Shown piece by piece: positions 14,863 through 55,546 of a stretch of DNA of 64,000 bases (positions are counted from its first letter, which is position 1; each line of letters opens with the position of its first letter). The stretch spans positions 10,074 through 74,073 of the forward strand of contig JBEHXE010000006.1 of the NCBI GenBank assembly GCA_048498855.1, in the 5' to 3' direction. The notes below the pieces were generated by a model. The model searched no databases. It saw nothing but the letters and a program-made list of their open reading frames with translations, and was not told where the DNA came from. The stretch is from Armatimonadota bacterium. Its GTDB lineage: Bacteria; Armatimonadota; Fimbriimonadia; Fimbriimonadales; Fimbriimonadaceae. The position numbers and the translations under genes were made by a program.

Positions 14863-14938
14863 GCGCTCGTAGCTCAGTGGATAGAGCATCAGCTTGCGGA
14901 GCTGGGGGTCGGAGGTTCGAGTCCTCTCGAGCGCGCCA
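14863..14938 (+). tRNA. tRNA-Arg, anticodon GCG
   Basis: A 76-nt cloverleaf folded by hand: acceptor GCGCTCG/CGAGCGC, D-arm GCTC-AGTGGATA-GAGC (A20 present), anticodon arm TCAGC-TTGCGGA-GCTGG, T-arm GGAGG-TTCGAGT-CCTCT, and an encoded CCA. Confidence 0.85.
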
Positions 14939-28170: not shown

Positions 28171-29192
28171 CCAAAGAACCGAGTGAGGCTGCGACTGAGG
28201 GCATCCGCCGTGAAATTCACGAGCGGAATGCTTCCGTCGTAATCCATTCGGGTTGGACCGACAATTGCAACGACGCCAACCTCGTTAGCGCCAATGTAAT
28301 ATCCTTTGCGCACGACACTAAACCGGTGCATCTGTTCCGCTCGATTTTCTTTGCCAATCGTGACGACATCCGTATTCGGCGAGACTGCTTCATAAAGAAC
28401 ATCGGTCTCATCAAGTTGCCGAAAGAGTTCAGATAACGCGGTGGCATCGCGCTGGAATTCTGGCTTGGAAAACAGAAATTCTTCGCCCTCGGTGATGAGT
28501 TTGCCACGGGTGAGCTGTTTCGCTATCGACCTCAGTTGAGCCCACACGAGGTTGAGAAGCTTTTCGATAATCGGTCCTTCAACGGCGAGTGGCTTGGTCC
28601 TCGTCATGGACTTGAGGTCTTTTCCAACAATCTGCAGACGCAGGGCTTCATTTGTCGCCCCAATGTCCTCAAGGGTCAAGTTTTTAGGACATTCAATCAT
28701 GCGATTTTCGATATGCCCATTGCTCAGTGCCACAACGAGGAGCGCTTGGGTTGGACCAAGACCCGAAAGAATCGCAGTGCGAACCGTAACGTTTGAGTCC
28801 TTAGTAGTTGTTGCTACTCCGAGTTGATTCGTGGCTCGACTCAAAACCTTTACTGTATCTCGCAGCAGATCCTGGAGAGCCTCTGTGTCTTGGGTGGCAT
28901 CTTTGACGGCCTTCTGCTGTCCTTCCGCAATGGCTTGCTCGACGATCAGGCGATCGACATAAAAGCGGTAACCGATATCGCTGGGAATGCGTCCAGCGGA
29001 GGTGTGGGGTTGTTCGAGAAATCCGAGTTCCGACATCTCAGCGAGTTCGTTGCGAACGGTCGCGGATTTAACGCCCAGGTCGTATTTTTGCACAAGCATT
29101 TCGGATGCGACCGGTTCTGCCCCCGTCACATATTCGATGACGATGGCACGCAAAAGCCTTTGCTTTCTCGGATCGAGTTCGTGCATGGACAT
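28167..29192 (-). CDS. hrcA: heat-inducible transcription repressor HrcA
   Basis: RKQRLLRAIVIEYVTGAEPVASEMLV...SATVRNELAEMSELGFLEQPHTSAGRIPSDIGYRFYVD. Confidence 0.9.
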   Translation of the reverse strand: MSMHELDPRKQRLLRAIVIEYVTGAEPVASEMLVQKYDLGVKSATVRNELAEMSELGFLEQPHTSAGRIPSDIGYRFYVDRLIVEQAIAEGQQKAVKDATQDTEALQDLLRDTVKVLSRATNQLGVATTTKDSNVTVRTAILSGLGPTQALLVVALSNGHIENRMIECPKNLTLEDIGATNEALRLQIVGKDLKSMTRTKPLAVEGPIIEKLLNLVWAQLRSIAKQLTRGKLITEGEEFLFSKPEFQRDATALSELFRQLDETDVLYEAVSPNTDVVTIGKENRAEQMHRFSVVRKGYYIGANEVGVVAIVGPTRMDYDGSIPLVNFTADALSRSLTRFFG

Positions 29193-29426
29193 TTCTATTG
29201 TACGTTTTTACAAAGACAAATGATCCGCTCGACATTTTGCCTCGTCGCAAACCTCATGCGGGTAATCAAAAGGTTTTTGGTTGATAGCCATGCCGATCTG
29301 TTGTGATCTGAAATCTAAATTCATTGGTTTTGGAATAGGCAATTTGCCCCGGATCATCAAGGTTAGGATTTCAGTATTTTTACTGGGTCTTAAGCCTTCA
29401 GCCCTTCCTACGATGGGGTAACTCAT

Positions 29427-29432
29427 TATAAT
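29427..29432 (+). promoter_or_regulatory. -10 box, leaderless configuration
   Basis: TATAAT lies 7 nt before the ATG at 29440. Confidence 0.4.
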
Positions 29433-29439
29433 AGTGGTG

Positions 29440-30096
29440 ATGAAGCTGGTTTTTCTAGGTGCATTTGCTTTGATGGGCGCCATGAGTCAGGCACAAGTTG
29501 CCGACGTTGCTTCCGATTTTGGGACGGGGGCAACGAACCCAAACGGTAATTGGAGCTATGGCTACTTTGCCACCTCGCTGTCCGATCCACTGACCCTTTA
29601 CACGATTCAATCGGTTACGTCAAACGACATTGTTTGGTCGGCGCCACAATCGGCAGGTCAACTTGGAACCCCGGCCGCTTGGCTGCACACCGGGCCTCCG
29701 GCAAACGGAATCAACACGGGCGAATTTGGTCTTCACCCAGGGCCGACTGAGATTTCTGTGGCTCGCTTTACCGTGCCCACCGGTTGGGGCGGTGTTGCCG
29801 ACGTAACGGGATCGTTTGGTCAAGGTGACATTGGTGCCGTTCGAGGACACGTTCTCTTGAATGGCGTCAGCTTGTTCGACCAATCGATGAGCACGACGAC
29901 TCCGTTCTCAATGCTGGGAATAACCCTCAATGCAGGAGACACGCTCGATTTCGCTGTGGACAATTTCGACGGTTACACGTTTGATTCAACTCCGCTCGAT
30001 GCTCACATTCAGTTCAATCCGGTACCAGAACCGGCATCCATTGCCTTTTTGGGCATGGGCGCGGTCGCACTGCTGAGACGCCGTCGCCGAGCCTAG
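29440..30096 (+). CDS. PEP-CTERM sorting-domain protein
   Basis: Signal peptide MKLVFLGAFALMGAMSQA. C-terminal VPEPASIAFLGMGAVALLRRRRRA. The track ORF starts at a GTG at 29434. Confidence 0.75.
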   Translation: MKLVFLGAFALMGAMSQAQVADVASDFGTGATNPNGNWSYGYFATSLSDPLTLYTIQSVTSNDIVWSAPQSAGQLGTPAAWLHTGPPANGINTGEFGLHPGPTEISVARFTVPTGWGGVADVTGSFGQGDIGAVRGHVLLNGVSLFDQSMSTTTPFSMLGITLNAGDTLDFAVDNFDGYTFDSTPLDAHIQFNPVPEPASIAFLGMGAVALLRRRRRA

Positions 30097-30120
30097 GTTG
30101 CTCAGGTTGGTTTAAGATGA

Positions 30121-30154
30121 GGCCCGTTGGCTGCGAAGTTCGCGACCAGCGGGC
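30121..30154. terminator. hairpin between convergent genes
   Basis: GGCCCGTTGG-14 nt-CCAGCGGGCC is a 10-bp stem with one G-T pair. The U-tract is weak. Confidence 0.5.
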
Positions 30155-30169
30155 CTCAGTTCTTGACGA

Positions 30170-31030
30170 TTAACTTCCGAAAGAGCCGTCGCCAATCATC
30201 GCCAGCGTTTCGCGAATGTCCTCGGCGGTATTCATGACGAATGATCGGTACTGGAGAATGGGCTCACCGAGTGGCTTTGCTGAACAGAACAAGAAGCGAG
30301 CTCCGTTCACACCCGCCGTTACCTCCACCTGGTCGCCCGACGAGAACACGATGATCTTGGGTTCTGTTGCAATGTGTCCTCCTGACGTGGCCGAGCCGCG
30401 CACGACATAGAGGAAGGCTTCTTCTTCGTTGCCCGTTGGAATCGCGACCGATGCTCCAGCTTCCAAAGTTATATCGAGCACCGTTGGATGGACCGCGATG
30501 TTTTGGAAGATTCCTTCGGTACCTTGAAAAGAACCCGCGACCACACGCACGGTTCCACCATTGATGGCGACTTCGGGAACCCTCTCGCTTGGCCCATTCA
30601 CATATCCTGCAGGAACGCGCTTCTGGTCTCGTGGAAGACTAAACCAAAGCTGAAGCATCTCGGCTCCATCGTCACCGGCCTTCATCATTTCTTCGTGCCA
30701 GATTCCGTTGCCGGCGGTCATCCACTGCGTACCACCTGGGCCGACGATGCCTTCGTTGCCGAGTGAATCCTTATGCCCGACTTCGCCTTTCAACACGTAG
30801 CTGAGGGTCTCGATGCCTCGATGAGGATGACGATGAAAACCTACTACGTCGGACGCCGCTTCGATCGACGCATGATCAAGCAGGATGAATGGGTCGAGAA
30901 TGGCCATTCGGTCGCCACCGATGACGCGGTTGATGGTCACGCCTTGGGCTTCGTTGACGGAGGTTGGAGTGTAAGAAAATGCGGCTAATCGAGAACTCAT
31001 GTGGATAGTGTACGTCCCGAGAGCAGTCAA
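30170..31030 (-). CDS. pirin-family protein
   Basis: Motifs GFHRHPHRGIETLSYVL and QWMTAGNGIWHEE, with a bicupin length (286 aa). Confidence 0.9.
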   Translation of the reverse strand: MTALGTYTIHMSSRLAAFSYTPTSVNEAQGVTINRVIGGDRMAILDPFILLDHASIEAASDVVGFHRHPHRGIETLSYVLKGEVGHKDSLGNEGIVGPGGTQWMTAGNGIWHEEMMKAGDDGAEMLQLWFSLPRDQKRVPAGYVNGPSERVPEVAINGGTVRVVAGSFQGTEGIFQNIAVHPTVLDITLEAGASVAIPTGNEEEAFLYVVRGSATSGGHIATEPKIIVFSSGDQVEVTAGVNGARFLFCSAKPLGEPILQYRSFVMNTAEDIRETLAMIGDGSFGS

Positions 31031-31057
31031 GAATGTATGGACGGATACGGTTGTGAG

Positions 31058-33151
31058 CTACTTTATACTTGCGATGCGTTTGTCGACATCCTCGAGAAAC
31101 TGCTGAAGGTCACGAATAAGGTCGGGTTCGTCGAACTTCTTGATCTTCTCGATTATGGCAAGGACTTTTTGCCTCAATTCAAAGAGGCTTAGGAAGGGAA
31201 CGTATTCCTTAATTCTCCTTTGCAAATCAGCTCTAAGGTCTTTGAATCGGAAAGTGGGGCCTACATTCATGTCGTTCGGTCCACAAACGTCGAAGGCGAA
31301 CCAGTGACTGGGCGAAAGGTGGCAGCGGAGCGTGTATCGGACCCGATGGCTGAACTTGAATAGGCTTGCTTCATCGGCATACTTTCTCCCAGTGCCACAG
31401 ATTCCAAAAGAGTACTGATATTCCTCAAGCCGCCCAGGAATTGGATATCCCGACAGCCATTGGTGCGGCTCCTCACTGTCTGTGAAGTAAGCCACATCAT
31501 CTGATTTGTTCTCGAGGCTTATCCCTGTTCCATCGAGGATCCCATTGGGTAGCTCGAACGTCGCATCCATTTTGCCAAGAACTGATTTCGCTTCACCAGC
31601 AACCCAAATCTCGGATGGCTTACCGAAAACCACGCCCGCGGCGAGCCTCAATTGGGTTGGGGTCAGTTGAGAATAAGGAATGATTTGACCCTTCATTAGT
31701 CGCTCAAATTGATCATCAGAAAGAGATGCAAAGAGTTTTGCGAAGAGGTTGTTGCTGTTTGCGTCTGCTTCCGAACCGTAGACCGTCTGGATGACTTGAT
31801 TGGCCAAACTGGCACCACCAGTGATTGCCAATCCAGAATAGAGTCTGGGGTCGAACTCCCGGTCAAATAACACGTTGTTGTTAAACCATGAGAGCGTTTT
31901 TCGGTCCGCTGAGTTTCTCTGTTCGATATCGACAATCGGCGTCTTAATTACGGTCCAAGTTTTATCGGATGTAACTCGGCTGTTCTCAAATTTAAACTCG
32001 AATTCGAATCCTTGTGGCGATTCAACTTTGTCGGAATCAGCGAGGCAAGCGACCACCGAAGTTCGCGTTTGGTGTGCCAATTGAGCCAAGAGTTCTTGAT
32101 TTCCTGGTCTTAGAAAATCGTTCACCTGGGTTTGGGTGTAAAAAATTCGGGCTTGGTTGGAAAGTGGGTTCTGGGCCCAAAAGGCTTGGGTCTCCTTCGT
32201 GGGCTCGGGCACGTTCAGGCCCTTAAAAACACTGTGTTGATCGTTGCCCTCACTTTCTTGTTCATCTAGTCGAGCACCTGATTGAAGGGAAATGGCTTTT
32301 TTCCCCTCGGCGGTAAAGACGTCGAATTGAAACTCAATCCAGTCTTCGTAAGTCCTGCAAACTGAGAGTAATGCCACTCTTGGTTCATGTCGGAAAGGCT
32401 GTTTGGACGCAAAAGAATCATTGATTTGTTCGTCCACTTGTGGCTCATCCAGAAAGGGAAGTTCGATCACCTTGCCGTTATCGTCTTTCCATTCAATTTT
32501 CCCAAGCGTTTCAGCCCAGAGGTTTTGTTCCTCGATCATTTTGGGTAACAATCTGGATTGAAGAGGGCTCTGTGAGTTTGTCGGCTGAGAAGAATAGACA
32601 ATCCGTTCATAGGGCAGCAGCTGAGCCACGGCCCGGAGATCTACTGAACGGATGGCTCTGTGAAAAGCACGAACGATTGGGTCGCTTTGTTTGTCTTTTT
32701 CTTCTTCTTTAGGAACCTGCCCCAGATTTCGCTTGAGGCGGTATCCGATCGTCGTGATCGATTCTTTGGAGAATTGCTGGTCGAGATGATCAGTCTCTGC
32801 AGTTCGCCATTTAGCAAGATTCTTAACTCGTTGGTCGACAAGAACGGATTGGAACTTGGTGAGGAACTCTTTTGACCTCGTGAGGGTCAATGAACCATCT
32901 GAGTTTGTTCTCCAATCGGCATTGGTTGCTTGGGCAATTCGAGTGAGGATGTCCCGAATCGATTGGTTTGTGATATCGATGAAGATCACTTCATCGCCAA
33001 CGGATCCGACGGTACTTAGGCGAGCGCCGGTTTGTTTGGCAAGGCTATCGATCGCTCGGCTGGCGGAACTGACTGGGACTTGAATGGTCACCCGACGTGA
33101 TAGGTCGTCGGTTTGCGTGAGTCCCCAAAATGCCACCAATGCTGCGGTCAT
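31058..33151 (-). CDS. large secreted hypothetical protein, paralogue of 52269-54410
   Basis: Hydrophobic N-terminus, then an STN-like module (AIDSLAKQTGARL...IRDILTRIAQATNADW). Blocks shared with the 713-aa ORF include VVACLADS/VIACLPDS, LSDDQFERL..GQIIPYSQLTPTQ, and RYTLRC/RLTLKC. Confidence 0.7.
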   Translation of the reverse strand: MTAALVAFWGLTQTDDLSRRVTIQVPVSSASRAIDSLAKQTGARLSTVGSVGDEVIFIDITNQSIRDILTRIAQATNADWRTNSDGSLTLTRSKEFLTKFQSVLVDQRVKNLAKWRTAETDHLDQQFSKESITTIGYRLKRNLGQVPKEEEKDKQSDPIVRAFHRAIRSVDLRAVAQLLPYERIVYSSQPTNSQSPLQSRLLPKMIEEQNLWAETLGKIEWKDDNGKVIELPFLDEPQVDEQINDSFASKQPFRHEPRVALLSVCRTYEDWIEFQFDVFTAEGKKAISLQSGARLDEQESEGNDQHSVFKGLNVPEPTKETQAFWAQNPLSNQARIFYTQTQVNDFLRPGNQELLAQLAHQTRTSVVACLADSDKVESPQGFEFEFKFENSRVTSDKTWTVIKTPIVDIEQRNSADRKTLSWFNNNVLFDREFDPRLYSGLAITGGASLANQVIQTVYGSEADANSNNLFAKLFASLSDDQFERLMKGQIIPYSQLTPTQLRLAAGVVFGKPSEIWVAGEAKSVLGKMDATFELPNGILDGTGISLENKSDDVAYFTDSEEPHQWLSGYPIPGRLEEYQYSFGICGTGRKYADEASLFKFSHRVRYTLRCHLSPSHWFAFDVCGPNDMNVGPTFRFKDLRADLQRRIKEYVPFLSLFELRQKVLAIIEKIKKFDEPDLIRDLQQFLEDVDKRIASIK

Positions 33152-33180
33152 GAGATAGTGGCATTATAACGTGTTTATTT

Positions 33181-33282
33181 CTGGCCATGACCCCCATTCC
33201 TAACCCTTCCCCCTAAATGCTCGGCCAGGATTTTCCTCACTGGAATTCGGAAATCGGTGCGCCTCGCAGTTAATGGGAAGGG
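33181..33282. repeat. pyrimidine-tract/purine-tract palindromic element
   Basis: CTGGCC (33181) pairs with GGCCAG (33223). CCCTTCCC (33204) pairs with GGGAAGGG (33275). It lies between aroG and the 697-aa gene. Confidence 0.35.
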
Positions 33283-33292
33283 AAAAGATGTC

Positions 33293-34330
33293 TTACTTAA
33301 CCGCGCGGGCCAACTGCTCCAGCAACTCGACCGTGTCATCAAATCCGATACACGCATCCGTCACGCTTTGACCGTAGACCATCTCTGGTGAGATGTCTTG
33401 TCGCCCCTCTACGAGGTGGCTTTCGATCATGACGCCCATAATTCCGTGGTCGGCCGTCGCTAACTGTGAACATATTGAATCGAGTACGACCCGTTGATTG
33501 CGATGATCCTTATTGCTATTGCCGTGGCTACAATCGATCATGACTTTGCCCGGAAGCCCATTTTTTTCGAGCATCTTCATCGCACCCTGAACATCTTCGG
33601 CTGAATAATTCGGGCCAGTTTGGGTGCCGCCACGGAGGATGACGTGGCAGTCTTCGTTGCCGCGGGTTTTGAAAAGGGAAGACACGCCTTGCTTGGTGAT
33701 GGAAGGGAACCAGTGCGACTGACTGGCTGCCAAAACGGCTTCGACGGCGCGCTGAACATTGCCTTCGGTCGTGTTTTTAAATCCGACAGGCATCGACAGT
33801 CCGCTCGCGAGTTCACGGTGAACCTGGCTTTCAGTCGTGCGGGCGCCGATGGCGACCCACGACGTGATGTCAGCGATGTGCTGAGGAATCTGCAAATCCA
33901 AGAATTCCGATGCCGTAGGCAAGCCAAGATCGTTAATGTCGAGGAGCAAACGACGGGCGGCTCGCAAGCCTTTGTTGATATGGTAGGTCTCATCAAGGTC
34001 GGGATCGTTGATGAATCCTTTCCAGCCAACCGTTGTGCGGGGCTTTTCGAAATAGGCGCGAACGGCGACGATCAATTTGTCGTTGAGCTGTTCGGCGATG
34101 GGTGCGAGTCGAGAGGCATACTCGAACGCACTGGCCGGGTCATGGATGCTGCACGGGCCGACGACCACCACGATTCGGGGGTCCTTGCCATGAAGAACAT
34201 TGGCTATTTCGGCGCGAGCTTTATCCACAACCTCAGAGACGCGATCTGAAACCGGGTGCTCCTCATGGAGGATCGCCGGGGGGATCATTGGCCGTGATTC
34301 GGTTATTCGTAAGTCGTCCGTCAGTCGCAT
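33293..34330 (-). CDS. aroG: 3-deoxy-7-phosphoheptulonate synthase, class I
   Basis: Motifs DPRIVVVVGPCSIHD, KPRTTVGWKG, and IDCSHGNS. The ATG at 34330 (MRLTDDLRI) is preferred over the track start at 34459. Confidence 0.9.
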   Translation of the reverse strand: MRLTDDLRITESRPMIPPAILHEEHPVSDRVSEVVDKARAEIANVLHGKDPRIVVVVGPCSIHDPASAFEYASRLAPIAEQLNDKLIVAVRAYFEKPRTTVGWKGFINDPDLDETYHINKGLRAARRLLLDINDLGLPTASEFLDLQIPQHIADITSWVAIGARTTESQVHRELASGLSMPVGFKNTTEGNVQRAVEAVLAASQSHWFPSITKQGVSSLFKTRGNEDCHVILRGGTQTGPNYSAEDVQGAMKMLEKNGLPGKVMIDCSHGNSNKDHRNQRVVLDSICSQLATADHGIMGVMIESHLVEGRQDISPEMVYGQSVTDACIGFDDTVELLEQLARAVK

Positions 34331-34515
34331 ATGGAATCTCAAGCGGACGCCTTTGTTCGCTCCCCCAAGTATATCTAGTTCGCGGGAACCTATCGCTCGG
34401 TAAGGCTGCCAGGGTGTGACGAATAACCTGTGGAAAACGATGCACAAAAAATGTGACAAATGATTTGCAAAAAATCCTCTACTTGTCTATGGCTTGTGGT
34501 GGCATAATGATTGAG

Positions 34516-34531
34516 CCCCTATATCTAGTGG
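34516..34531. promoter_or_regulatory. NrdR-box candidate
   Basis: CCCCTATATCTAGTGG (reverse complement CCACTAGATATAGGGG) fits the acaCwAtATaTwGtgt consensus at about 12-13 of 16 positions. It sits between a CATAAT box (34503-08) and the nrdR ATG. Confidence 0.5.
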
Positions 34532-34547
34532 TTGAGAGACTTGAGCC

Positions 34548-35045
34548 ATGCGCTGTCCTTTTTGCGGAAATGATGATCTAAAAGTACTGGATTCACGTCC
34601 AGGAGCCGATGGTGAGTCGATTCGACGTAGAAGAGAATGTGCCAAATGCACCAAGCGATTTACCACCTGGGAGCGATTCGAACGAGTCCGCCTTTTCGTT
34701 ATCAAACGCGACGGAAGCCGGTGTGAGTTCAATCGAGACAAAGTCTTTGATTCCATGCGGTTAGCCTGTCGAAAACGACCGGTTTCTGTTGAGCAAATTC
34801 GCCAGGCCGCCAGCCGGATCGAAGAAGAATTGTTTCAAAAATTTGACGACGAAGTGAGCTCGAAAGAGGTCGGCAGCCACGTCATGCGTGAGCTTTCGAC
34901 CATCGACACCGTCGCCTATGTCCGTTTTGCTTCGGTCTATCGCGAGTTCGAGACCGTTGCCGACTTTGCCGAAATGGTCGAGCGCGTCCAGAGGGAGGAA
35001 GCGTTGTCGCCATTTAAGCATTTACAAAAAGAACTTATATCTTAG
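34548..35045 (+). CDS. nrdR: transcriptional repressor NrdR
   Basis: MRCPFCGNDDLKVLDSR zinc ribbon plus an ATP-cone. Confidence 0.95.
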   Translation: MRCPFCGNDDLKVLDSRPGADGESIRRRRECAKCTKRFTTWERFERVRLFVIKRDGSRCEFNRDKVFDSMRLACRKRPVSVEQIRQAASRIEEELFQKFDDEVSSKEVGSHVMRELSTIDTVAYVRFASVYREFETVADFAEMVERVQREEALSPFKHLQKELIS

Positions 35046-35066
35046 GAGACCTCAGGAAGAGACATC

Positions 35067-38000
35067 ATGAAAATTCGACGCTACTTTACGCAATCAGGGA
35101 AGAACCCTTACGCTGGAATCGACTTCGAGCCGCGCAAGAGTGAAATCCGCAATCCGGACGGTTCGACCGTTTTCCTTATGGAGAACGTGATGGTTCCATC
35201 ACAATGGAGCCAAGTCGCCACCGACATTCTTGCGCAAAAATACTTCCGAAAGGCCGGAATCACACCAGGGAAGGTGAACGGCGTCGAATACAGCCCGATG
35301 AACGAGGAGTTCATCACCCCCGGCGAATCTCGCGAAACCGACTCGCGACAAGTCTTCCACCGACTCGCCGGATGTTGGCGACACTGGGGCGAAGAGTACG
35401 GCTACTTCGACACGAAAGAAGATGCCCAATCGTTTTACGACGAGCTTGTCTACATGCTTGCTAAGCAGGTCTCCGCGCCAAACTCGCCGCAGTGGTTCAA
35501 TACCGGTCTCCACTTCGCCTACAGCATCACGGGTTCGGCTCAAGGTCATTATTACGTCGATCCTAAGACGACTCAACTTTCCCTCTCAAAGAACGCTTAT
35601 GAGCGCCCCCAACCCCACGCCTGCTTCATCCTCAGCGTCAAGGATGATCTGGTCAACGAGGGCGGCATCATGGACCTGTGGACTCGCGAAGCGCGAATCT
35701 TCAAGTACGGTTCGGGTGTCGGCACCAACTTCTCACAGATTCGGGGCGAAAACGAAAAGCTGAGCGGCGGCGGAAAGTCGAGCGGTCTCATGAGCTTCCT
35801 TCGGGTTGGCGATCGATCTGCCGGAGCGATCAAATCGGGCGGTACGACTCGCCGTGCGGCCAAGATGGTGTGCCTTGATATCGACCATCCAGATATTGAA
35901 GAGTTCATCAACTGGAAAGTCAAGGAAGAGCAAAAGGTCGCTTCGCTCGTGACCGGTTCGAAGCTCAACCAACGTCACATCAACGCCATCATGAAGGCGG
36001 CCTTCATGGATGGAAAGGTCAATGCCAACCCGCGAAACAACCGCGCTCTTTGGAACGCCATCGCCGAAGCAAAACTCGACGAAATCCCAACCAACTACAT
36101 TCAACGTGCAATCCAATTTGCCGAGCAGGGATACACCAGCATCGAATTCCCAACCTTCGATACTGGTTACGAATCCGAGGCTTATCTGACGGTTTCTGGT
36201 CAAAACTCAAACAATTCCATTCGTGTGAGTAACGAATTTTTCCAGGCGGTTGAGAACAACGAAGAGTGGGGTCTGAAGGCCCGAACGAGTGGAAAGGTTC
36301 TCAAGACGCTCTCGGCTCGCGGACTGTGGGATGACCTCTGCCAAGCCGCATGGAACTGCGCCGACCCCGGTCTGCAATACGATTCGACGATTAACGAATG
36401 GCACACCTGTCCGGCGCACGGCCGCATCAATGCCAGCAATCCGTGTTCGGAATACATGTTCCTCGATGACACGGCCTGTAACCTTGCCTCGATCAACCTC
36501 GCGTCGCTTTATAACCAAGAAACCGGCGAATTCGATCTCGAAGGCTATGTCCACGCGATCAATGTTTGGACAACCGTTCTCGAAATCTCGGTGCTCATGG
36601 CTCAATTCCCAAGCAAGGAGATTGCCCAACTCAGCTATGATTTCCGCACGCTCGGGCTTGGCTATGCAAATCTCGGCGCACTGCTGATGCAGATGGGCAT
36701 TCCGTACGACAGCAAGGACGGCTTTGCCATCGCTGGCGCGCTCACCTCGATTCTTGGCGGCGAAAGCTACGCGACCAGCGCTGAAATGGCCAAGCAGCAC
36801 GGGCCTTTCCCCAAGTTCCACCCGAACCGGGATCATATGCTCCGCGTTATTCGCAACCATCGCCGGGCGGCTTACAATGCGCCCGATTCGGATTACGAAG
36901 AACTGGCCATCAAGCCAGTCGGCATCGACCAGGAGGTTTGCCCGTCGAACCTGTTGAAGGCTGCTCATAAGGCGTGGGATCGTGCGCTGGAGATCGGCGA
37001 ACGAAACGGTTTCCGCAATGCCCAGGTGACGGTTCTTGCGCCCACCGGCACCATCGGGCTCATCATGGACTGCGATACGACCGGTATCGAGCCTGACTTT
37101 GCTCTCGTCAAGTTCAAGAAGCTCTCGGGTGGTGGCTACTTTAAGATCATCAACCAGAGCATTCCACCTGCCCTCAAGAAGCTCGGCTACTCGCAAGAGC
37201 AGATCGAAGACATCGTCGGCTATGCGACGGGCTACAAGACGCTTAAGACGGCTCCGCACATCAACCACGAATCGCTCAAGGCATTCGGGTTTACCGATGC
37301 AGTTCTGACGCAAATCGAAGCTGGTCTTGAGTCGGCGTTTGAACTCAAGTTCGTTTTCAATAAGTTTAATATTGGTGAGGAATTCTGCAAGAAAACGCTC
37401 GGCTTTAGCGATGATCAGTTGAATGATTGGTCGTTCAACATGCTCGAATCGCTCGGCTTTACCAAGGATCAAATCGAAGAGGCCAACGAATATGTTTGTG
37501 GCTCGATGACGGTCGAAGGCGCTCCGCACCTGAAGGATGAGCACCTACCAATCTTTGACTGTGCGAACAAGTGCGGCAAGAAAGGGAAGCGGTTCATTTC
37601 CGCCGAGGGCCACATCCGCATGATGGCGGCAGCTCAGCCGTTCCTTTCGGGGGCTATCTCCAAGACGATCAACCTCCCGGCCGAAGCCTCGGTTCAGGAA
37701 GTCCACGATGCGTATTGGCTTTCGTGGCAACTCGGCCTTAAGGCCAACGCCCTCTATCGCGACGGTTCGAAACTGAGCCAACCACTCAACTCGTCCACTA
37801 GCGACTCGGCTGCGGCGATTCTTGAGGCGACTCTTGACCTCGAAATGGGAATCGAAGATGCCCCCGCGGCAGCGGCCTATACCTCTCTGGCGAGAGAGGT
37901 CGGTGAGCCTGCGAACCGGGAGAGTCGAACAGAAGCCGAACTCTCGCAACACGACCAGATCGAGCGAATCGCCACCAAGCTCGTCTACCGTTACATCAGC

Positions 38001-39011
38001 AAGCGACGACTGATGCCGGGCCGCCGCCGAGGCTACACCCAAAAGGCGCGAGTGGGTGGCCACAAGGTCTACCTGCGAACAGGCGAATTTGAGGACGGAA
38101 CCCTCGGCGAGATCTTCGTGGATATGCACCGCGAAGGCGCCGCGTTCCGCTCGTTGATGAACTGCTTTGCGATTGCCGTGTCGCTCGGTCTGCAATACGG
38201 TGTCCCGCTCGAAGAGTTCGTCGAAGCGTTCGTCTTCACGCGATTCGAGCCAAACGGAATGGTCAGCGGTCACGACAACATCAAGATGTCGACCTCGGTC
38301 ATCGACTACATTTTCCGCGAACTCGCGATGAGCTATCTCGGACGCAATGACCTGGTTCAGGTCAAGCCCGAAGACCTCCGCAACGACACCGTCGGTAAGC
38401 CGGTCGATTACCCTGACTTCGACGAAGAAGAAGAGGTTGCCGAGTTGGATGACGAAGAAAACGTGCCAGGCTTTGCCTCAAATGATCACACGTCACGCGG
38501 ATTTGGCGCGAGTCGAGAACAGAGCCCGCTCCCTTTTGATGGCGCGCCGGAAGCCCTCGGTTCTCCGGCGGAATCCCTTGCTCGCAATCAGAAGGGCATT
38601 CCCGCGCAGTACGAAGAACGCGTGGTGAGCGGTCATGGCGCGAATGGCGTCGGCCTGTTCGAAGTCTCAGACAACACCCCTACCATCGTGAAGCGGGCGT
38701 ACTTGGCCGGTGAGGCCACGGATGTCTCCCTCGCTGGTCGAGGGAGCGGTGAGCAAAGCGAACCGGAGGGAGTGGCGAAGTCAGATTCGCAAGTGAGTGC
38801 CAAACAAAGCCCCTCCCCCGAAGGTCGGAGGGGTGAAACCCGCCCGGTCACGCCGAAGTCCGCTCTGTCCGAAGTGTCGGAGAAGATCCGCATGGCGCGA
38901 TTGCAAGGCTACGAAGGCGACCCGTGTACGAATTGCGGTGCGTTTACGCTGGTAAGAAACGGCGTGTGTCTTAAGTGCCAGAGTTGCGGAGAGACTAGTG
39001 GATGTAGTTAA
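35067..39011 (+). CDS. nrdJ: adenosylcobalamin-dependent (class II) ribonucleotide reductase
   Basis: Motifs [35 protein letters not shown], and ISKTINLP. A long acidic/Ser-Pro linker is followed by a terminal CTNCG...CLKCQSCG zinc-finger tail. No intein signature seen. Confidence 0.95.
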
Positions 39012-39021
39012 ATGTAGTTAA
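39002..39021. repeat. perfect 10-bp tandem duplication across the nrdJ stop
   Basis: ATGTAGTTAA occurs twice in tandem. The first copy contains the nrdJ TAA (39009-11). Confidence 0.8.
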
Positions 39022-39023
39022 TC

Positions 39024-40403
39024 TTGGCAGACTTTACCGCAGACCTAAATAAGATCGATGACGACCTGATGGAGAGGGCGTCATCGGTCGTTTATAGACA
39101 AGGGTGGCAGTCTCAAAGCGGTGTTATGCCCTATGGCGAGGCGATAGCCGTGCTAAAGAATATTATTGGAGAACTCAGAGACTATTCTGAAACCGAGACT
39201 CGCGATTCCATTCCAGTTATGGCGAGACAAACCATCAAGGCGTCGCTCGCCAACATTTATAATTCTCTTTACAATATTGAGAATGGAAATCAACATGTTC
39301 AGCAGTTGACTGAAGAGGTTGGACGGCTCCATCTAACCATTTGGCAGGGAGGTTTCCGGTATCGCGGCAAAAAAGTAGTAGGCTATGAAGCAAAGTATGC
39401 GCAAATCTCAAAGCTTGCAAAAGAAATCGAAGAAATCCAAGAAGGCAAGCATACAGCGGAAGAACAACTTGAAGAAGTTTCTAGGCTGAAGTCTGAGCTG
39501 GAAGTAATTGCCGCTGAAATACGTACGATTAAGTCTGGGATTGATGTCAAAAACTTGGAGCTTGCCAATCACTATGAAGAAGCCGAGAGTAGTCGTGACA
39601 ACATCCAGGATCAAGTGGCGAAGATCGGATCGTTAGTTAACGAAGCAACAGAGTCGGCAAGCGAAGCAGAAGCTAAAGCGCAATCCGCGACGACAAACGA
39701 GAAGCGCTTACAAGACTTTATAAAGCGTGTTGATTCCAGTGAAAAAAGACTCAGCGAGACGATAGAGAAATCTAACACAGGATTCTTAGAACTTTCAAAA
39801 TCTGTTCAGGAATTTAAAGATGACCAGACGACTGACCTCGAACAATTTATTGAGCGACTCAAAGCAATTGAGATCGACATAAACCAAAAGCTGAGCAAAG
39901 CAACAGGGGTAACGTTATTTCATTCCTTCGATCAAAGAAGTAAGAGAACATACGCTCATTGGATTTGGTTAGTGCTTGGACTTGGAATTTTTGCTGCCAC
40001 GGTCTACGTAATTCTAGGTGCAGTCAATGGCTTGAAAGGAAGTCCCGATGCGGCGTTCCTAATCAAACTGAGTTTGAGTCTTCCTGCCATTTTGATCATT
40101 GGATTCGCTCTCCAGCAATATAGTAAAGAACGTAGACTCAAAGAAGAGTACGCCTTCAAGTCAGCCATTTCGCTCTCGCTGGACCCATATCGAAAGCTTG
40201 TCGAGGAGGCAGTTGACGTATTGACGCCGGAGGAACGAGTCAGATTCGCAGACTTCCTCATTACTAGTATCTCTATAATTTTCGAATCTCCGACAGAAAA
40301 GGTATTCGGTGAAAAACGAGTGCGATATGCTGGTGACACCAAGATAATTTCTGGCTTTCTAGAAAATGTTAAGAAAGCATCTGACATAGTTAAACCACAT
40401 TGA
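39024..40403 (+). CDS. coiled-coil protein with C-terminal two-TM module, hypothetical
   Basis: 459-aa ORF that is clearly more AT-rich than nrdJ. The central part is E/K/Q-rich and helical. TM spans are WIWLVLGLGIFAATVYVILGAV and LIKLSLSLPAILIIGFAL. TTG start, with an alternative ATG at 39069. Confidence 0.65.
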   Translation: MADFTADLNKIDDDLMERASSVVYRQGWQSQSGVMPYGEAIAVLKNIIGELRDYSETETRDSIPVMARQTIKASLANIYNSLYNIENGNQHVQQLTEEVGRLHLTIWQGGFRYRGKKVVGYEAKYAQISKLAKEIEEIQEGKHTAEEQLEEVSRLKSELEVIAAEIRTIKSGIDVKNLELANHYEEAESSRDNIQDQVAKIGSLVNEATESASEAEAKAQSATTNEKRLQDFIKRVDSSEKRLSETIEKSNTGFLELSKSVQEFKDDQTTDLEQFIERLKAIEIDINQKLSKATGVTLFHSFDQRSKRTYAHWIWLVLGLGIFAATVYVILGAVNGLKGSPDAAFLIKLSLSLPAILIIGFALQQYSKERRLKEEYAFKSAISLSLDPYRKLVEEAVDVLTPEERVRFADFLITSISIIFESPTEKVFGEKRVRYAGDTKIISGFLENVKKASDIVKPH

Positions 40404-40408
40404 CTCTC

Positions 40409-40615
40409 GGCCAGCCACTTCGTGGGCCTGGTCAAACTAGTCGTGCCACTGGTTCCGACGTCTTCACGCCACCGCTTGCGCGGGACGTTGCAGAGACAAC
40501 GCTTGCGTGATGGGAGAAACCAGTGTTCATATTTGCGCTTCGCTTAGGGTCGCTGTTCAATTCGAATGTGATAGATCAGTGCAAGCCACCGCTCCGTGGA
40601 CTAATACAATTAACG
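40409..40615 (+). repeat. repeat A copy 1 with leader motif
   Basis: Leader GGCCAGCCACTTCGTGGGC... (40409-40), then A (40441-40615). This copy carries a 32-bp insertion (40470-40501) in the hairpin loop. Confidence 0.85.
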
Positions 40616-40711
40616 GCTAGCCACTGCGTGGGCGGGGCTAAACCTCCGAATAGTCGTGGCACTGGTTCCGACGTCTTCACGCTTGCATGATGGGAGAAAC
40701 CAGTGTTCTTA
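40616..40711 (+). repeat. repeat A copy 2 (5' hairpin module only) with leader motif
   Basis: Leader GCTAGCCACTGCGTGGGCGGGGCTAAACCTCCGAATAG, then A positions 1-58 (40654-40711). Similarity ends after CAGTGTTCTTA. Confidence 0.85.
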
Positions 40712-40827
40712 GATACGCAGCTAAGCACGAGTAATGACTGCGCTTGTTTGTCGTATATTTTGCCTAGATAAAGGTCCCCTGAAGTTAAACTTGAAGTCAT
40801 TGGCGCATACCATGCGCCTTGGTGGTA

Positions 40828-41127
40828 ATGGAAAGGCAAAAGAGAGTCATTGTTTGTGTTATTCTAATCCTTCATACCTTGTGCGGTCTCTGTTCCTGCG
40901 CGATACTCATTCAACTGGCAGTATCCACAGAAGTTATTTCGAGTCGCTCGCCTATTGTTTTTTCCTACCTGTTCTGCTCTCCTCTTGTCTTCTTGGGCCA
41001 ATGGGTTCCCGAAGGAAGCAAGTCGAGCGAATCTTCACTCCTAAAGATATCTGGTTTCAGTAATAAGGTGGCAGTAGCCGATACTTGCGTTCTAATTTTA
41101 GTCGCTTGGTTGCTTTTTCTGAAGTGA
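40828..41127 (+). CDS. possible small Cys-rich membrane protein
   Basis: MERQKR followed by three hydrophobic spans, within the AT-rich unique segment between A2 and A3. No RBS and no homology recognised. A competing ORF (40734-41063) lies in another frame. Confidence 0.25.
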   Translation: MERQKRVIVCVILILHTLCGLCSCAILIQLAVSTEVISSRSPIVFSYLFCSPLVFLGQWVPEGSKSSESSLLKISGFSNKVAVADTCVLILVAWLLFLK

Positions 41128-41137
41128 TCGAAATGGT

Positions 41138-41336
41138 GAGCCACTTCGTGGGCGGCTAGCCACTGCGTGGGCGGGGCTAAACCTCCGAATAGTCGTGGCA
41201 CTGGTTCCGACGCCTTCACGCTTACGTGATGGGAGAAACCAGTGTTCTTATTCACGCTTCGCTTAGGGGCGCTGTTCAATTCGAATGTGATAGATCAGTG
41301 CAAGCCGCCGCTCCGTGGACTAAGACAATTAACGAA
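41138..41336 (+). repeat. repeat A copy 3 with doubled leader motif
   Basis: GAGCCACTTCGTGGGC plus the 39-bp leader (41154-92), then full-length A (41193-41336). Confidence 0.85.
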
Positions 41337-41631
41337 CTTCATTACCACGGCTTCGCCCTTCGCTAAGTTAATACGCCCACTTCGGGGCTAAAGAGGTGAC
41401 GTCTTCTGGGAGTATTGGGCGTCTCGCCCAATTCCTAGTTGGTAATGTCTCTTAATTGGGGTCGCTCCGCTTCTTGGACTGGGGCAATGTCGCCTTTCTT
41501 CCAGGGCCTTCGCTTCGCTCCAAGCCTGGCGAGGCTTTGGGGCTAAAAAGGATTGAGCCCAGTGTGGAGTGCGTGGATTTATCCGCGCTTTGTCCTGCGA
41601 GATTTATCTCGCTGCCCTAAGAAACACTGGC
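41337..41631 (+). repeat. repeat B copy 1
   Basis: 295 bp, near-identical to 41827-42132. Contains several strong hairpins. Confidence 0.85.
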
Positions 41632-41666
41632 TCGCCACATCATTACAGGGTTAGCTTCTGATCTAA

Positions 41667-41826
41667 TCGTGGCACTGGTTCCGACGTCTTCACGCTTGCG
41701 TGATGAAAGAAACCAGTGTTCTTATTCGCGCTTCGCTTAGGGTCGCTGTTCGGTCCAAACGCGAAAGATCAACCCAAGCCACCGCTCCGTGGACTAAGAC
41801 TGTTGTGGACTAAGACTGTTAACGAA
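41667..41826 (+). repeat. repeat A copy 4
   Basis: Same ends as A1 and A3, but the central roughly 25 nt are replaced (CGGTCCAAACGCGAAAGATCAACCC). Also has an internal 16-bp tandem duplication (41789-41820). Confidence 0.85.
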
Positions 41827-42132
41827 TTTCATTACCTGGGCTTCGCCCTTCGCTAAGTTAATACGCCCACTTCGGGGCTAAAGAGGTGACGTCTTCTGGG
41901 AGTATTGGGCGTCTCGCCCAATTCCTAGTTGGTAATGTCTCTTAATTGGGGTCGCTCCGCTCCTTGGACTGGGGCAATGTCGCCTTTCTTCCAGGGCCTT
42001 CGCTTCGCTCCAACCCTGGCTAGGCTATCTCGCCCCGTTGGGGCAAAAGAGGATCGAGCCCAGTGTGGAGTGCGTGGATTTATCCGCGCTTTGTTCGGCG
42101 AGATTTATCTCGCTGCCCTAAGAAACACTGGC
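41827..42132 (+). repeat. repeat B copy 2
   Basis: 306 bp, about 95% identical to B1 by eye, plus an 11-bp insertion. Confidence 0.85.
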
Positions 42133-42246
42133 CCGAGGGGAGATATTTTGTGTGGCATGCTAAATCCCGCCGAAGTGCAATGAGCGAATCGGGACTAAGA
42201 ACGAGCTGGGGTTTGAGTATGGGAGCCAGTACTACCGCGCGGGTCG

Positions 42247-42343
42247 CGTGCGCTCCTCGGACTTGGGATGATGAACATGACGTTCCAGGGCCTTCGCTTT
42301 GCTCCAACCCTGGCTAGGCTACTCTCGCCAAGTTGGGGCTAAG
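42247..42343 (+). repeat. partial, diverged repeat B copy 3
   Basis: GCTCCTCGGACTTGGG...TTCCAGGGCCTTCGCTTTGCTCCAACCCTGGCTAGGCT aligns to the middle of B. Confidence 0.6.
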
Positions 42344-42393
42344 GGGCTAAGGGAGCGAAGAGTTGGGTTAACCGCTGCGTAGAGTGCGTCGTT

Positions 42394-42450
42394 CGTGTGG
42401 CACTGCCAGCAACCCTTTCTGCTTATGGAATGGTAGTTAGCAGTGTTTCC
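42394..42450 (+). repeat. diverged copy of the repeat A hairpin
   Basis: GTGTGGCACTGCCAGC...GCAGTGTTTCC. The stem CACTGC/GCAGTG replaces CACTGG/CCAGTG. Confidence 0.5.
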
Positions 42451-42562
42451 CTTGGTGCTATCGCTTTTTGCCGTTCCGCTCTTCCGGTTCAAGAAGGCCA
42501 ACGCCGAGATAGAATGGCAAAGCTCTCGGTTAATGAAATAAGAAAGCAGCGCCAAGGTCTCC

Positions 42563-42568
42563 TATAAT
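42563..42568 (+). promoter_or_regulatory. -10 box, leaderless configuration
   Basis: TATAAT lies 6 nt before the GTG at 42575. Confidence 0.35.
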
Positions 42569-42574
42569 GCAATC

Positions 42575-43093
42575 GTGACTGCTCGACAACCCTTGGCAAA
42601 GATTCCAATCAATCGATGCATTGCCTTGTTGATCTCGGGTCTGTGGTACGTCACCGCAATTCCCTCTGAAGCGGTCCACGCCGCTGTTTTTGTCGTGCTG
42701 CGTCGGCCCTTTGACATGGCAGGAGCATTGGTGTACGGCCATTCTACGGTTCAGGAAGCAAAAGACATGTTTCCCGCCAACGACTATTCAACCGAGTATC
42801 TTGGTCCTTTGGCGTTTATTGGACTGACGGTGGTCGTCCTTCTGAGTCTTTGGCTCTTACTACGGTCGCAAATGCGTTGGATGAGAAGTCGATTTTTGCT
42901 CACTCTGTTGAGAACGGGCGGGCTTGGGTTCGCAATCGCGATCCTGGTCACGTGCGCAAAATTGGAGATTGAATTAGGGCCGCCGCGCGTCGCCCAGTGG
43001 TTCATACTCACGCTTTTTCTGTTGCCGTTGTGGAGCCGTCGAAAGGTGGACGATAGCTCCGTACCCACCTCCCAAATGGCCTCGTTGCATTGA
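42575..43093 (+). CDS. membrane protein, hypothetical
   Basis: 172 aa with about four hydrophobic spans. Flanked on both sides by A/B repeat fragments. Confidence 0.5.
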   Translation: MTARQPLAKIPINRCIALLISGLWYVTAIPSEAVHAAVFVVLRRPFDMAGALVYGHSTVQEAKDMFPANDYSTEYLGPLAFIGLTVVVLLSLWLLLRSQMRWMRSRFLLTLLRTGGLGFAIAILVTCAKLEIELGPPRVAQWFILTLFLLPLWSRRKVDDSSVPTSQMASLH

Positions 43094-43126
43094 ATGAATC
43101 GCTTGAGTTCTCCAAGGCCTAGTAAA

Positions 43127-43168
43127 AACGCCCGCTTCGGGGCCCAAAGAGGGCTTGACGTCGGCGGG
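43127..43168 (+). repeat. fragment related to the 5' part of repeat B
   Basis: AACGCCCGCTTCGGGGCCCAAAGAGGGCTTGACGTCGGCGGGG compared with B ATACGCCCACTTCGGGGCTAAAGAGGTGACGTCTTCTGGG. Confidence 0.5.
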
Positions 43169-43211
43169 GAACAAGCCGAAGGTGAACTAGGGAGCCATTT
43201 CGGACTTCCCC

Positions 43212-43248
43212 GATGACCAAGTCAAAGGGGGAAACACTGTTCTACGCG
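43212..43248 (+). repeat. fragment related to the 3' arm of the repeat A hairpin
   Basis: GATGACC...GGGGGAAACACTGTTCTACGCG compared with A GATGGGAGAAACCAGTGTTCTTATTCGCG. Confidence 0.4.
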
Positions 43249-43258
43249 GCCAAATTTA

Positions 43259-43855
43259 CTAGAGATTGCTCAGTGGCCGAGCTTTGGGCTTGCCACAGCA
43301 CTTGACATACTGCTTCTGACTACCACATGGGCATCGCTCCCAGTTCCGAACGTCTCTCGACAAGATTCGCTGAGACATGGCTTCCATCTTCTTAATTTCT
43401 TCTTCGGGAATCGCGTCATCAGACCCGTACTGAATGCGGAGTCGATCGCGCCATTCACCCATCTTAAACATCACCCTTGCAAAGAGGCTATCGGAGAGGG
43501 CCATGCGCTTGCTCGCCACCGGACCGCCATCCTTCCAGATGCCCGCTTCTTCCAGGAACATGATCTGCGGATTTTCGTCTTCGCGCGGTGTGATGTCGAC
43601 CAATTCGCCGCTTGGCGACTTCCAAATCGCGACTGCTTCACCTTCGACGATGACGCCTTCTTGATACCAAATCGCCCAACCTTCGAGCGTCTCGCCACCA
43701 TCGGCCTTCACCTTTGCGTCAACGTTTGCCTTCCAATCGTTGACCTTCATCCCTTCTTCCGGCTTAATATCGACGATGACCGAGGTCGAATTCGGATTCA
43801 ACCGACGGCAGAAATCCTGAACAATCTCCTCTTGAACTTTGCTCATGCGAATCAT
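43259..43855 (-). CDS. SEC-C motif domain protein
   Basis: C-terminal CPCGSQKQYVKCCGKP zinc-binding SEC-C motif. The N-terminal roughly 170 aa are unassigned. Confidence 0.75.
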   Translation of the reverse strand: MIRMSKVQEEIVQDFCRRLNPNSTSVIVDIKPEEGMKVNDWKANVDAKVKADGGETLEGWAIWYQEGVIVEGEAVAIWKSPSGELVDITPREDENPQIMFLEEAGIWKDGGPVASKRMALSDSLFARVMFKMGEWRDRLRIQYGSDDAIPEEEIKKMEAMSQRILSRDVRNWERCPCGSQKQYVKCCGKPKARPLSNL

Positions 43856-55082: not shown

Positions 55083-55546
55083 AGTTGAGCTGGCACTTTG
55101 ATCTTATTGGTCGCAAGCCGAAAGGCGATCACGAATGCCAGTCCGATCAAGAGAAACACACCCCCTGCTATTAAAGGGCTTCGTTCGGTCTGGTCTTCAG
55201 ATTGGACGACGGTATTGGCGACGCTAAATTGACTTCGAACTATCCCGTCCGACCCGTGTCGAATCCCGTCCGACCCGTGTCGAATCCCGGCCGAATCCCG
55301 CCCCGGCTTTATCGAAACCTCTTCTTGTCGGAGCCGCTGTGAAGTCGGATTGCCATATCGATCGAGGACGGTAGGATCCTGCCCGACCGGTGCGGTCGTT
55401 CCGTTGAATGTCATCTCCTGAGTGACTTGGGCCTCGGTCTGTTCGGGGCGTTTGATGTGCCATTCGCTGGCGCGGTTGATATCCTGTCCCAGACCGATGC
55501 TAGCCAACATCGATCCGACGATAAGCATTCCAAGTTTAAAGCGCAT
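55079..55546 (-). CDS. signal peptide plus C-terminal TM protein with heptapeptide repeat
   Basis: MRFKLGMLIVGSMLASIGLG, a GIRHGSD repeat (two copies), and a C-terminal TM span. Its start overlaps the stop of the 617-aa gene by 11 nt. Confidence 0.55.
   Translation of the reverse strand: MRFKLGMLIVGSMLASIGLGQDINRASEWHIKRPEQTEAQVTQEMTFNGTTAPVGQDPTVLDRYGNPTSQRLRQEEVSIKPGRDSAGIRHGSDGIRHGSDGIVRSQFSVANTVVQSEDQTERSPLIAGGVFLLIGLAFVIAFRLATNKIKVPAQL

Follow-up and report, generated by a model that had tools for sequence, protein, structure and literature searches.

In contig JBEHXE010000006.1 of an Armatimonadota bacterium (assembly GCA_048498855.1), we analyzed a stretch of 64,000 nucleotides (positions 10,074 to 74,073 of the forward strand; hereafter, the window) in which an array of hairpin-rich direct repeats lies between two convergent genes. 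Upstream, the + strand carries nrdR, nrdJ (35067–39011), which encodes a class II ribonucleotide reductase, and a gene for a 459-aa protein (39024–40403); downstream, on the − strand, is the gene of a protein with a SEC-C motif (43259–43855). The array begins 6 nt 3′ of the stop codon of the 459-aa gene and, when a marginal last unit is included, spans positions 40407–42451, with all its modules in the same orientation. The analysis reported here makes it likely that this array is a cluster of repetitive extragenic palindromic (REP)-type elements, enlarged by local tandem duplication. The unit of which it is built belongs to a family that flanks genes of REP-associated tyrosine transposases (RAYTs) in inverted orientation and that is dispersed in related Armatimonadota genomes.

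A previous reading of the bare sequence (the original prediction) had described two modules, A (about 150 bp) and B (about 300 bp), whose copies follow one another in the same orientation from 6 nt past the end of the 459-aa gene onward. Gapped self-BLAST and a repeat search of the window bear out both the array and its starting point: only direct repeats are found between 40408 and 42342, and neither procedure returned inverted copies of the array modules, or copies outside the array, within the 64 kb. The copies of module A placed at 40441–40615, 40654–40711, 41193–41336 and 41667–41826 are real. The same applies to the proposed tandem of about 490 bp, formed by the third and fourth copies of A with the two copies of B: positions 41153–41634 and 41629–42135 (A3-B1 and A4-B2) are 85.7% identical over 510 columns. 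As these copies differ by many substitutions and by an indel, the tandem is real and not an assembly artefact. The B copies themselves (B1, 41337–41634; B2, 41827–42135) share 92.6% identity when aligned globally, an 11-bp indel included, and 94–96% in ungapped blocks, in agreement with the 95% estimated before. All six frames of modules A and B contain stop codons, and the short open reading frames (ORFs) common to A1, A3 and A4 change non-conservatively; a coding array was therefore rejected. The interval is, however, not entirely devoid of ORFs, as one of 172 aa is present at 42575–43093.

What had to be revised is the choice of A and B as units. The real, biological unit is a leader followed by the 5′ hairpin of module A, of about 100 nt (95–125 nt for the full unit); the tail of A and module B are local extras. 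It consists of a constant leader of 25–30 nt, GGCKAGCCACTNCGTGGGCGGGG, a short variable spacer and then a long hairpin. A weight matrix of the leader, built from 42 non-window copies, gives four + strand cores at 40409, 40615, 41135 and 41154 (24.7–35.7 bits), and nothing reaching 10 bits in the rest of the window on either strand. Some further sequences of the A tail and of B (e.g., AGCCGCCGCTCCGTGGAC and CGCCCACTTCGGGGC) recall the leader core when inspected by eye, but they score below 8 bits on this matrix and are not claimed. The covariance model R2, built from six non-window units only, recovers five window units, all on the + strand (62.5, 61.0, 58.3, 32.5 and 19.9 bits), and nothing else in the 64 kb. 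Between the two convergent genes there are hence five units, one of them marginal, all head-to-tail on the + strand.

Unit 1 (40407–40531; R2 58.3 bits, E = 1e-10) has its leader core at 40409–40438 (26.9 bits on the leader matrix) and its hairpin at 40443–40527, with an insertion of about 30 nt at about 40470–40498. It is followed by a first copy of the A tail (40532–40612), which is 94% identical to 41218–41334 and has no homologue outside the window. Unit 2 (40613–40711; R2 61.0 bits, E = 2.5e-11; leader matrix 35.7 bits) contains the A copy that had been considered truncated; with its leader it is a complete basic unit of about 99 nt, 96% identical to unit 3, and its tail resembles the tails of copies found in two metagenome contigs (L111 and L090, see below). 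Unit 3 (41152–41250; R2 62.5 bits, E = 1.2e-11; leader matrix 35.7 bits) is abutted by a solo leader core (41135–41153, + strand; 24.7 bits), and such a doubled leader also occurs in contig L115 (5239–5290, 90% identical). A second copy of the A tail (41251–41336), obtained by both the repeat search and self-BLAST, separates unit 3 from B1 (41337–41626 when delimited as a feature), a hairpin-rich module of about 300 nt that was co-duplicated with unit 3 and that is devoid of 11 nt found in B2 and in an older partial copy, B3. Unit 4 (41627–41724; R2 32.5 bits, E = 7.4e-5) keeps a good hairpin, its leader being degenerate or replaced and not recognizable as such. The third copy of the A tail (41725–41826) is heavily substituted in its middle segment; a perfect 16-bp tandem duplication within it (GTGGACTAAGACTGTT twice, at 41789–41820) represents a small slippage event. 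It is followed by B2 (41827–42135) and by B3 (42241–42342), which corresponds to the middle of module B and is 78–82% identical to B1 and B2 (E from 1e-9 to 1e-17). The last element, at 42364–42451, is a possible decayed unit 5: its R2 score is marginal (19.9 bits, E = 0.053), its long hairpin is kept, and its outer stem reads CACTGC/GCAGTG vs. CACTGG/CCAGTG in the other copies.

Some of the lesser repeats previously listed have to be reconsidered in view of these units. The degenerate A copy at 42394–42450 survives as the marginal unit 5, but the one at 43212–43248 is not supported by R2. Regarding partial B copies, B3 is real, but the one at 43127–43168 is a match of only 20/23 nt that may be a terminator. 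The leader that was said to precede A is confirmed by the four cores of the weight matrix; nevertheless, none can be recognized at A4, and the solo leader at 41135 had not been listed.

The structure of the hairpin was analyzed in an alignment of 11 compact copies (A5). All 11 copies have the tetranucleotide GTGG immediately 5′ of the stem, 94.4% of the stem cells are paired and six pairs are changed on both sides. None of 500 shuffles reaches the observed values, and register shifts drop the paired fraction to 35–51%. The hairpin is maintained by compensatory changes. Its unpaired CCGAC and GGGAGAA bases are conserved, and its distal insert varies from 10 to about 70 nt. G-U (G-T) pairs occur on the GTGG-tagged strand, which in the window is the + strand. 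As GC skew is positive in all of the eight 8-kb bins (z = 4.4), the hairpin-bearing + strand of the window is probably the lagging-strand template.

The search was then extended to other sequences. An exact 23-mer of the A hairpin has no match in species-representative genomes (596 Gb) and none in the metagenome collection; the family is therefore not widespread at high identity. No match to the array was obtained in phage, plasmid and viral-contig collections. The leader occurs twice in tandem right 3′ of a gene downstream of nrdJ in contig L006, and once in an unrelated intergenic region of contig L015. Scanning metagenomes with the leader consensus gave 28 loci, mostly unrelated high-GC coding matches; the leader was present on six metagenome contigs from two samples (L089, L090, L092, L096, L108 and L111). 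In five of these six (the exception being L089), GTGTGGCACTGGYTCCGAC comes next, then a variable insert and GGGAGAARCCAGTG, which together are the 5′ hairpin of module A. Clusters of the unit are thus not confined to the window, but also occur among related genomes and metagenome contigs. Copies in either orientation are found on the metagenome contigs, frequently at their ends, and identical elements are found in different flanks: L090 and L096 share the element, and their upstream sequences differ. No duplicated target common to the upstream flanks of independent copies was found.

The relevant clue about the nature of the family comes from the gene that these units accompany. Contig L092 encodes a 172-aa protein with a HUH motif (PDHVHIMV) and a catalytic-tyrosine motif (YIHMNPVR), which passes the Pfam Y1_Tnp model and matches the NCBIfam REP-associated tyrosine transposase with E = 1.8e-22. 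Homologues of this RAYT are encoded in L108, L096, L015 and L111. A database search with it gave 467 relatives at E ≤ 1e-20, several of them labelled Armatimonadota, and one source names a relative "REP element-mobilizing transposase RayT". Wherever tested, the RAYT proteins are above the Pfam Y1_Tnp cutoff. With the NCBIfam model REP_Tyr_transpos (cutoff 80 bits), five of seven RAYTs score 80.0–85.5 bits and the remaining two 79.8 and 71, whereas all seven stay at 24–36 bits, far below the cutoff of 55, with the IS200 model. Leader-plus-hairpin units in inverted orientation flank the RAYT gene on both sides in L092 (2802+ and 3615−), L108 (299+ and 1121−), L114, L115, L116, L118 and L015. In L121 an inverted unit (98.3 bits) follows the RAYT gene; this contig starts 52 nt before the gene, and the downstream unit alone is visible. 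Inverted repeats bracketing a RAYT gene constitute the arrangement known as REPtron (PMC6006769; PMC3733652). The closest relative, the metagenome-assembled genome (MAG) GCA_025360125.1, carries family units on three contigs (three loci in L015, plus L120 and L121) and encodes three RAYT paralogues (L015 4092–4598, L120 4001–4534 and L121 53–568), about 50–60% identical to one another. Each paralogue has its own hairpin type, and the leader is common to all of them.

Two further arrangements were observed in these contigs. A third element, GATGCTGTRWTGTCA(TGTC)AAGKGGTTAT, is often located 3′ of the leader (L006 14780–14815; L090 at about 30–60; L096 at about 40–70 and about 1290–1330; L092 at about 95–125). 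It carries a TTGACA-like box on the opposite strand, and several contigs end just past it, which makes it a possible boundary of a further multi-copy element. In L015, the region 15396–15860 contains a minus-strand ORF (about 100 aa, roughly 15483–15790) between inverted "type 2" hairpins that are 93% complementary, a REPtron-like arrangement around a gene that does not encode a RAYT.

With respect to module B, its fold on the + strand is better than that of shuffled sequences (z = −3.55). Like the A tail, B most likely represents DNA that flanked a unit and was duplicated together with it; co-amplification of flanking DNA has been described for large REP clusters (PMC3733652). The last 75 nt of B form a double hairpin: GGAGTGC, a stem of 7 bp, a TTTGnnC spacer, a stem of 6 bp, and TGC. 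It is located at 41554–41628 at the 3′ end of B1 (81.6 bits with its covariance model, R1) and at 42055–42129 in B2 (77.9 bits), both on the + strand. Elsewhere, two copies in inverted orientation lie between the genes of pirin and DAHP synthase in L015, and single copies are found in L120 and, in the more distant contig L012, directly 3′ of the nrdJ stop codon. When these copies are aligned (A6), the stems are wholly different and yet paired: 98.7% of cells are paired and 7/13 pairs are changed on both sides, the pairing of two copies being partly by construction, as they came from a search that required a hairpin. R1 detected no further copies in 590 kb. The double hairpin is a genuine, low-copy, dispersed second family, which could be another REP-like element or a 3′-end RNA element. 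On the − strand, positions 41548–41588 and 42047–42089 show a sub-threshold likeness to the cyanobacterial small RNA (sRNA) Yfr1 (E about 1; 19.5–19.7 bits vs. a gathering threshold of 38). The Yfr1-like feature is a hairpin followed by unpaired ACUCCAC, and coincides with the conserved GGAGTGC of the B motif; the likeness is probably due to chance.

The model that we propose for the array is as follows. The REP-type units would be non-autonomous and would be copied by a RAYT, a single-stranded DNA (ssDNA) transposase of the Y1/HUH type, encoded elsewhere in the genome. This enzyme would recognize the folded top strand and its GTGG tag as ssDNA on the lagging-strand template, the strand on which Y1 transposases act (PMC6006769), and would cleave and rejoin it, so that new copies arise beside old ones. 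The block of about 490 bp (unit, A tail and B) would then have been duplicated through replication slippage or unequal recombination between units, and older copies would have decayed in place. Should transcription of the 459-aa gene read through into the array, the hairpins would serve as 3′-end stabilizers or as terminators, a role that has been proposed for other REPs.

The closest known systems are the REP/REPIN elements and the RAYTs (TnpA-REP) of E. coli, Pseudomonas and Stenotrophomonas (PMC3116915; PMC3337134; PMC3733652; PMC6006769). REP hairpins carry a 5′ GT[AG]G tag (PMC3733652; PMC6006769), and the extragenic hairpin repeat described here is likewise preceded by such a tag, in the form GTGG, a putative cleavage guide. 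Common features are also the Y1 transposase gene located between inverted copies (here, in related genomes), the presence of several RAYT paralogues per genome, each with its own hairpin type (here, in GCA_025360125.1), the tandem reiteration of clusters including flanking DNA (PMC3733652), for which the duplication of about 490 bp is the counterpart, and the position downstream of genes or between convergent genes. The original prediction found no known class of mobile repeat to which the modules could be assigned. This no longer stands: the tag, the conserved hairpin, the inverted copies flanking RAYT genes and the dispersion in related genomes make the leader plus A hairpin a REP-type element. 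Its other proposal, amplification of a mobile or functional unit beside decayed copies, is supported. A match to a miniature inverted-repeat transposable element (MITE) or insertion sequence (IS) remnant had been named among the results that would refute the original prediction, and what was found comes near to that, namely a non-autonomous repeat tied to a transposase of the IS200 superfamily (Y1).

The family nevertheless departs from classical REPs in several aspects. The unit found in the window is about 100 nt long, vs. 20–40 bp; a constant leader of 25–30 nt, common to at least three hairpin types, precedes the hairpin; internal-loop bases are conserved and distal inserts of 10–70 nt are tolerated in the hairpin; and the window copies are arranged head-to-tail, not as inverted doublets. 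The array can also be compared with the bacterial interspersed mosaic elements (BIMEs) of enterobacteria, mosaic clusters of REP hairpins and other short motifs, in which the non-REP motifs could parallel the leader. In BIMEs, however, REPs alternate in orientation, whereas every unit of the window lies on the + strand, the array contains no inverted repeats and an unrelated module of about 300 nt is interleaved. Long, complex flanks with further genomic copies are shared with RAYT subclass 2.6, of "atypical secondary structures", and with the TIRYT/TIRtron systems (PMC6006769; PMC3733652), but the flanks in our family are GTGG-tagged hairpins and not long terminal inverted repeats. Finally, Y1/HUH chemistry on subterminal ssDNA hairpins and non-autonomous hairpin elements mobilized in trans are also characteristic of IS200/IS605 and of palindrome-associated transposable elements (PATEs); unlike IS200/IS605, the transposases found here fail the IS200 model, no TnpB gene is listed next to them, and their flanks are inverted copies of a single type. 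Armatimonadota are absent from the phyla listed in PMC3733652, and a literature search found no link between this phylum and REPs. What is new here is a long-form, leader-bearing REP family of Armatimonadota, the kind of element, a selfish bacterial repeat, being already known.

Several observations weigh against the interpretation of the array as a REP cluster. There is no RAYT gene or remnant within the 64-kb window by tblastn (a candidate RAYT pseudogene inside the array was rejected, as it gave chance-level matches only), and neither the leader matrix nor R2 detects any unit in the other 61 kb; the cluster may be a relic in this genome. The head-to-tail arrangement of all window copies contrasts with the inverted dimers that the families described so far favor (PMC3733652). 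The hairpins, of 45–115 nt, and the unit, of about 100 nt, are well above the 20–40 bp of classical REPs. None of the relatives searched has a homologue of the A tail (about 80 nt) or of most of module B, and the fold of B would allow it an independent function. That this family is mobile and is cleaved by a RAYT is, moreover, extrapolated from work with E. coli and Pseudomonas. It is conceivable, though rather unlikely, that the unit represents a new composite class of Y1-transposase-associated element and that B is an independent structured RNA or 3′-end element. The sharing of one leader by three or more hairpin types, every one of them linked to its own RAYT paralogue, suggests that the leader is a separate functional module, be it a common cleavage/joining site, a site for a host factor or an RNA element. 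The hairpin would then provide the specificity for the transposase and would tolerate cargo-like distal inserts, and B, with its approximately 300 nt, its z-score and a covarying double hairpin in three Armatimonadota genomes, could be more than passenger DNA.

Explanations outside the REP framework were also considered. That the modules are structured sRNA genes or a single long structured RNA, as in multi-copy sRNA loci, the RAYT link being secondary, would be in accordance with the compensatory changes in the stems of both the A hairpin and the B double hairpin, with the G-U pairs on the + strand (the opposite strand would have A-C mismatches), with the fold of B, with the double hairpin directly following the nrdJ stop codon in L012, and with the unpaired ACUCC beside a hairpin that makes B faintly Yfr1-like on the minus strand. 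We nonetheless regard it as improbable. The units occur in both orientations with respect to their neighbors and are symmetric about the transposase gene, which fits DNA elements, and the hairpin conservation and strand asymmetry are equally expected from ssDNA recognition by a Y1 transposase. Module A folds no better than shuffled sequences; no promoter-like site is found on the + strand inside the array, where terminator-like sites have weak T tails; and no Rfam family matches, as already anticipated in the original prediction. At gathering thresholds, a tRNA-Arg at 14863 is the sole Rfam match in the window, the best permissive match in the array has E = 0.75, far below threshold, and a tRNA/tmRNA scan gave nothing in the array.

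We find it very improbable that the units are ends, or PATE-type MITE derivatives, of an autonomous IS200/IS605 element and not REPs of a domesticated RAYT. Certainly, the protein that accompanies the units is a member of the Y1_Tnp superfamily, a number of contigs terminate at units or close to them, as occurs with multi-copy insertion sequences, and the MAG that includes L015 has three paralogues. All seven proteins, however, fall short of the IS200 cutoff and score 71–85 bits on the REP-transposase model; the recorded Pfam lists of neighboring genes include no TnpB-like gene; the flanks are of the same type and inverted, whereas IS200/IS605 ends differ from left to right and are in direct orientation; and paralogues about 50–60% identical, with a hairpin type each, match distinct RAYT/REP pairs and not IS copies. 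A classical MITE was rejected as well, since no terminal inverted repeats bound the modules and the upstream flanks of independent copies have no duplicated target in common. Least probable of all, to the point of being barely credible, is an integron-like or att-site cassette array, with A as an attC or att site and with the unique 420-bp spacer, module B and the 172-aa ORF as cassettes. The same-orientation structured repeats, 200–800 bp apart with unrelated sequence between them, and the adjoining low-GC gene with homologues in restriction-modification islands could recall such an arrangement, but its cassettes would be non-coding or orphan, the unit ends read AATTAACG or TGTTAACG with no RYYYAAC/GTTRRRY core sites by inspection, the neighboring ORFs scanned contain no integrase or tyrosine-recombinase domain, and the same units bracket RAYT genes elsewhere. 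The scan of neighboring ORFs gave no integrase, transposase or defense-system match.

A REP-type cluster is hence the reading that we retain, and the comparison with relatives provides some information about the history of the site. Family units are located 1–2 kb downstream of nrdJ, past one variable gene, both in the window and in L006, L007 and L015. Synteny based on NrdJ places the organism among the Armatimonadota (Fimbriimonadales-like), and by NrdJ identity to the window, L006, L015 and L021 are the closest (83%), followed by L007 (81%). The site has probably held such elements since before the split of these lineages. A decayed unit 5 and the partial B3 beside a younger duplication of about 490 bp fit a long residence with occasional local amplification.

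Three further features remain in the interval. A unique stretch of about 420 bp (40712–41134), with no repeat match, separates unit 2 from unit 3 and includes overlapping ORFs of 102–109 aa; the 109-aa ORF has no Pfam or PADLOC match, and the 102-aa ORF, scanned against Pfam alone, has no match there. The orphan 172-aa ORF (42575–43093, + strand), which is not part of the repeats and is of uncertain coding status, shows hydrophobic stretches; among 5.8 billion proteins its sole match is itself, and it has no Pfam or PADLOC match. The alternatives are a small membrane protein specific to this lineage and an ORF called spuriously in decayed repeat DNA. The short − strand hairpin at 43121–43168, which resembles the first hairpin of B, is followed by TTTTT on the minus strand just after the SEC-C gene and may be the terminator of this gene; the terminator scan made no call there.

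In domain scans, the 459-aa protein gave weak coiled-coil matches and the SEC-C protein weak E2 matches at its C-terminal end. The former, a coiled-coil protein with two predicted membrane helices, is encoded in a low-GC patch (0.42–0.45). Its homologues (47–50% identical) are encoded in restriction-modification/defense operons of other organisms, one with UvrD, a ResIII helicase, a methyltransferase and an OLD nuclease, and the other with type I HsdS/M/R; the 459-aa gene may be an uncharacterized defense-island gene. Because no repeats follow these homologues, the array was rejected as a functional partner of the gene. NrdJ is long (1314 aa), with a TSCPD domain near residues 990–1088 and barrel domain matches in two stretches. 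A 21-nt tandem repeat of 2.5 copies at 55242–55300 (ATCCCGTCCGACCCGTGTCGA) is unrelated to the array.

The identification of the array has a practical side. The NCBI contig JBEHYV010000009.1 (L001; GCA_048497995.1) is 100% identical to window positions 29150–41447 and ends inside module B1, and contigs of relatives likewise end at or near family units (L006, L090, L096 and L121). REP-type units thus fragment short-read MAG assemblies, which matters for the annotation of such MAGs. The finding also removes an apparent mystery: a 2-kb ORF-poor hairpin array beside a gene of defense-island type is a REP cluster, in all likelihood, and not a new RNA gene family or defense component. The more interesting residue lies in the leader shared across RAYT-specific hairpins and in the unexplained, well-folding module B. 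For the Armatimonadota, a poorly studied phylum known mostly from MAGs, a REP/RAYT system is now documented, and its long unit, with a leader common to several RAYT-specific hairpin types, could help to show what RAYTs recognize.

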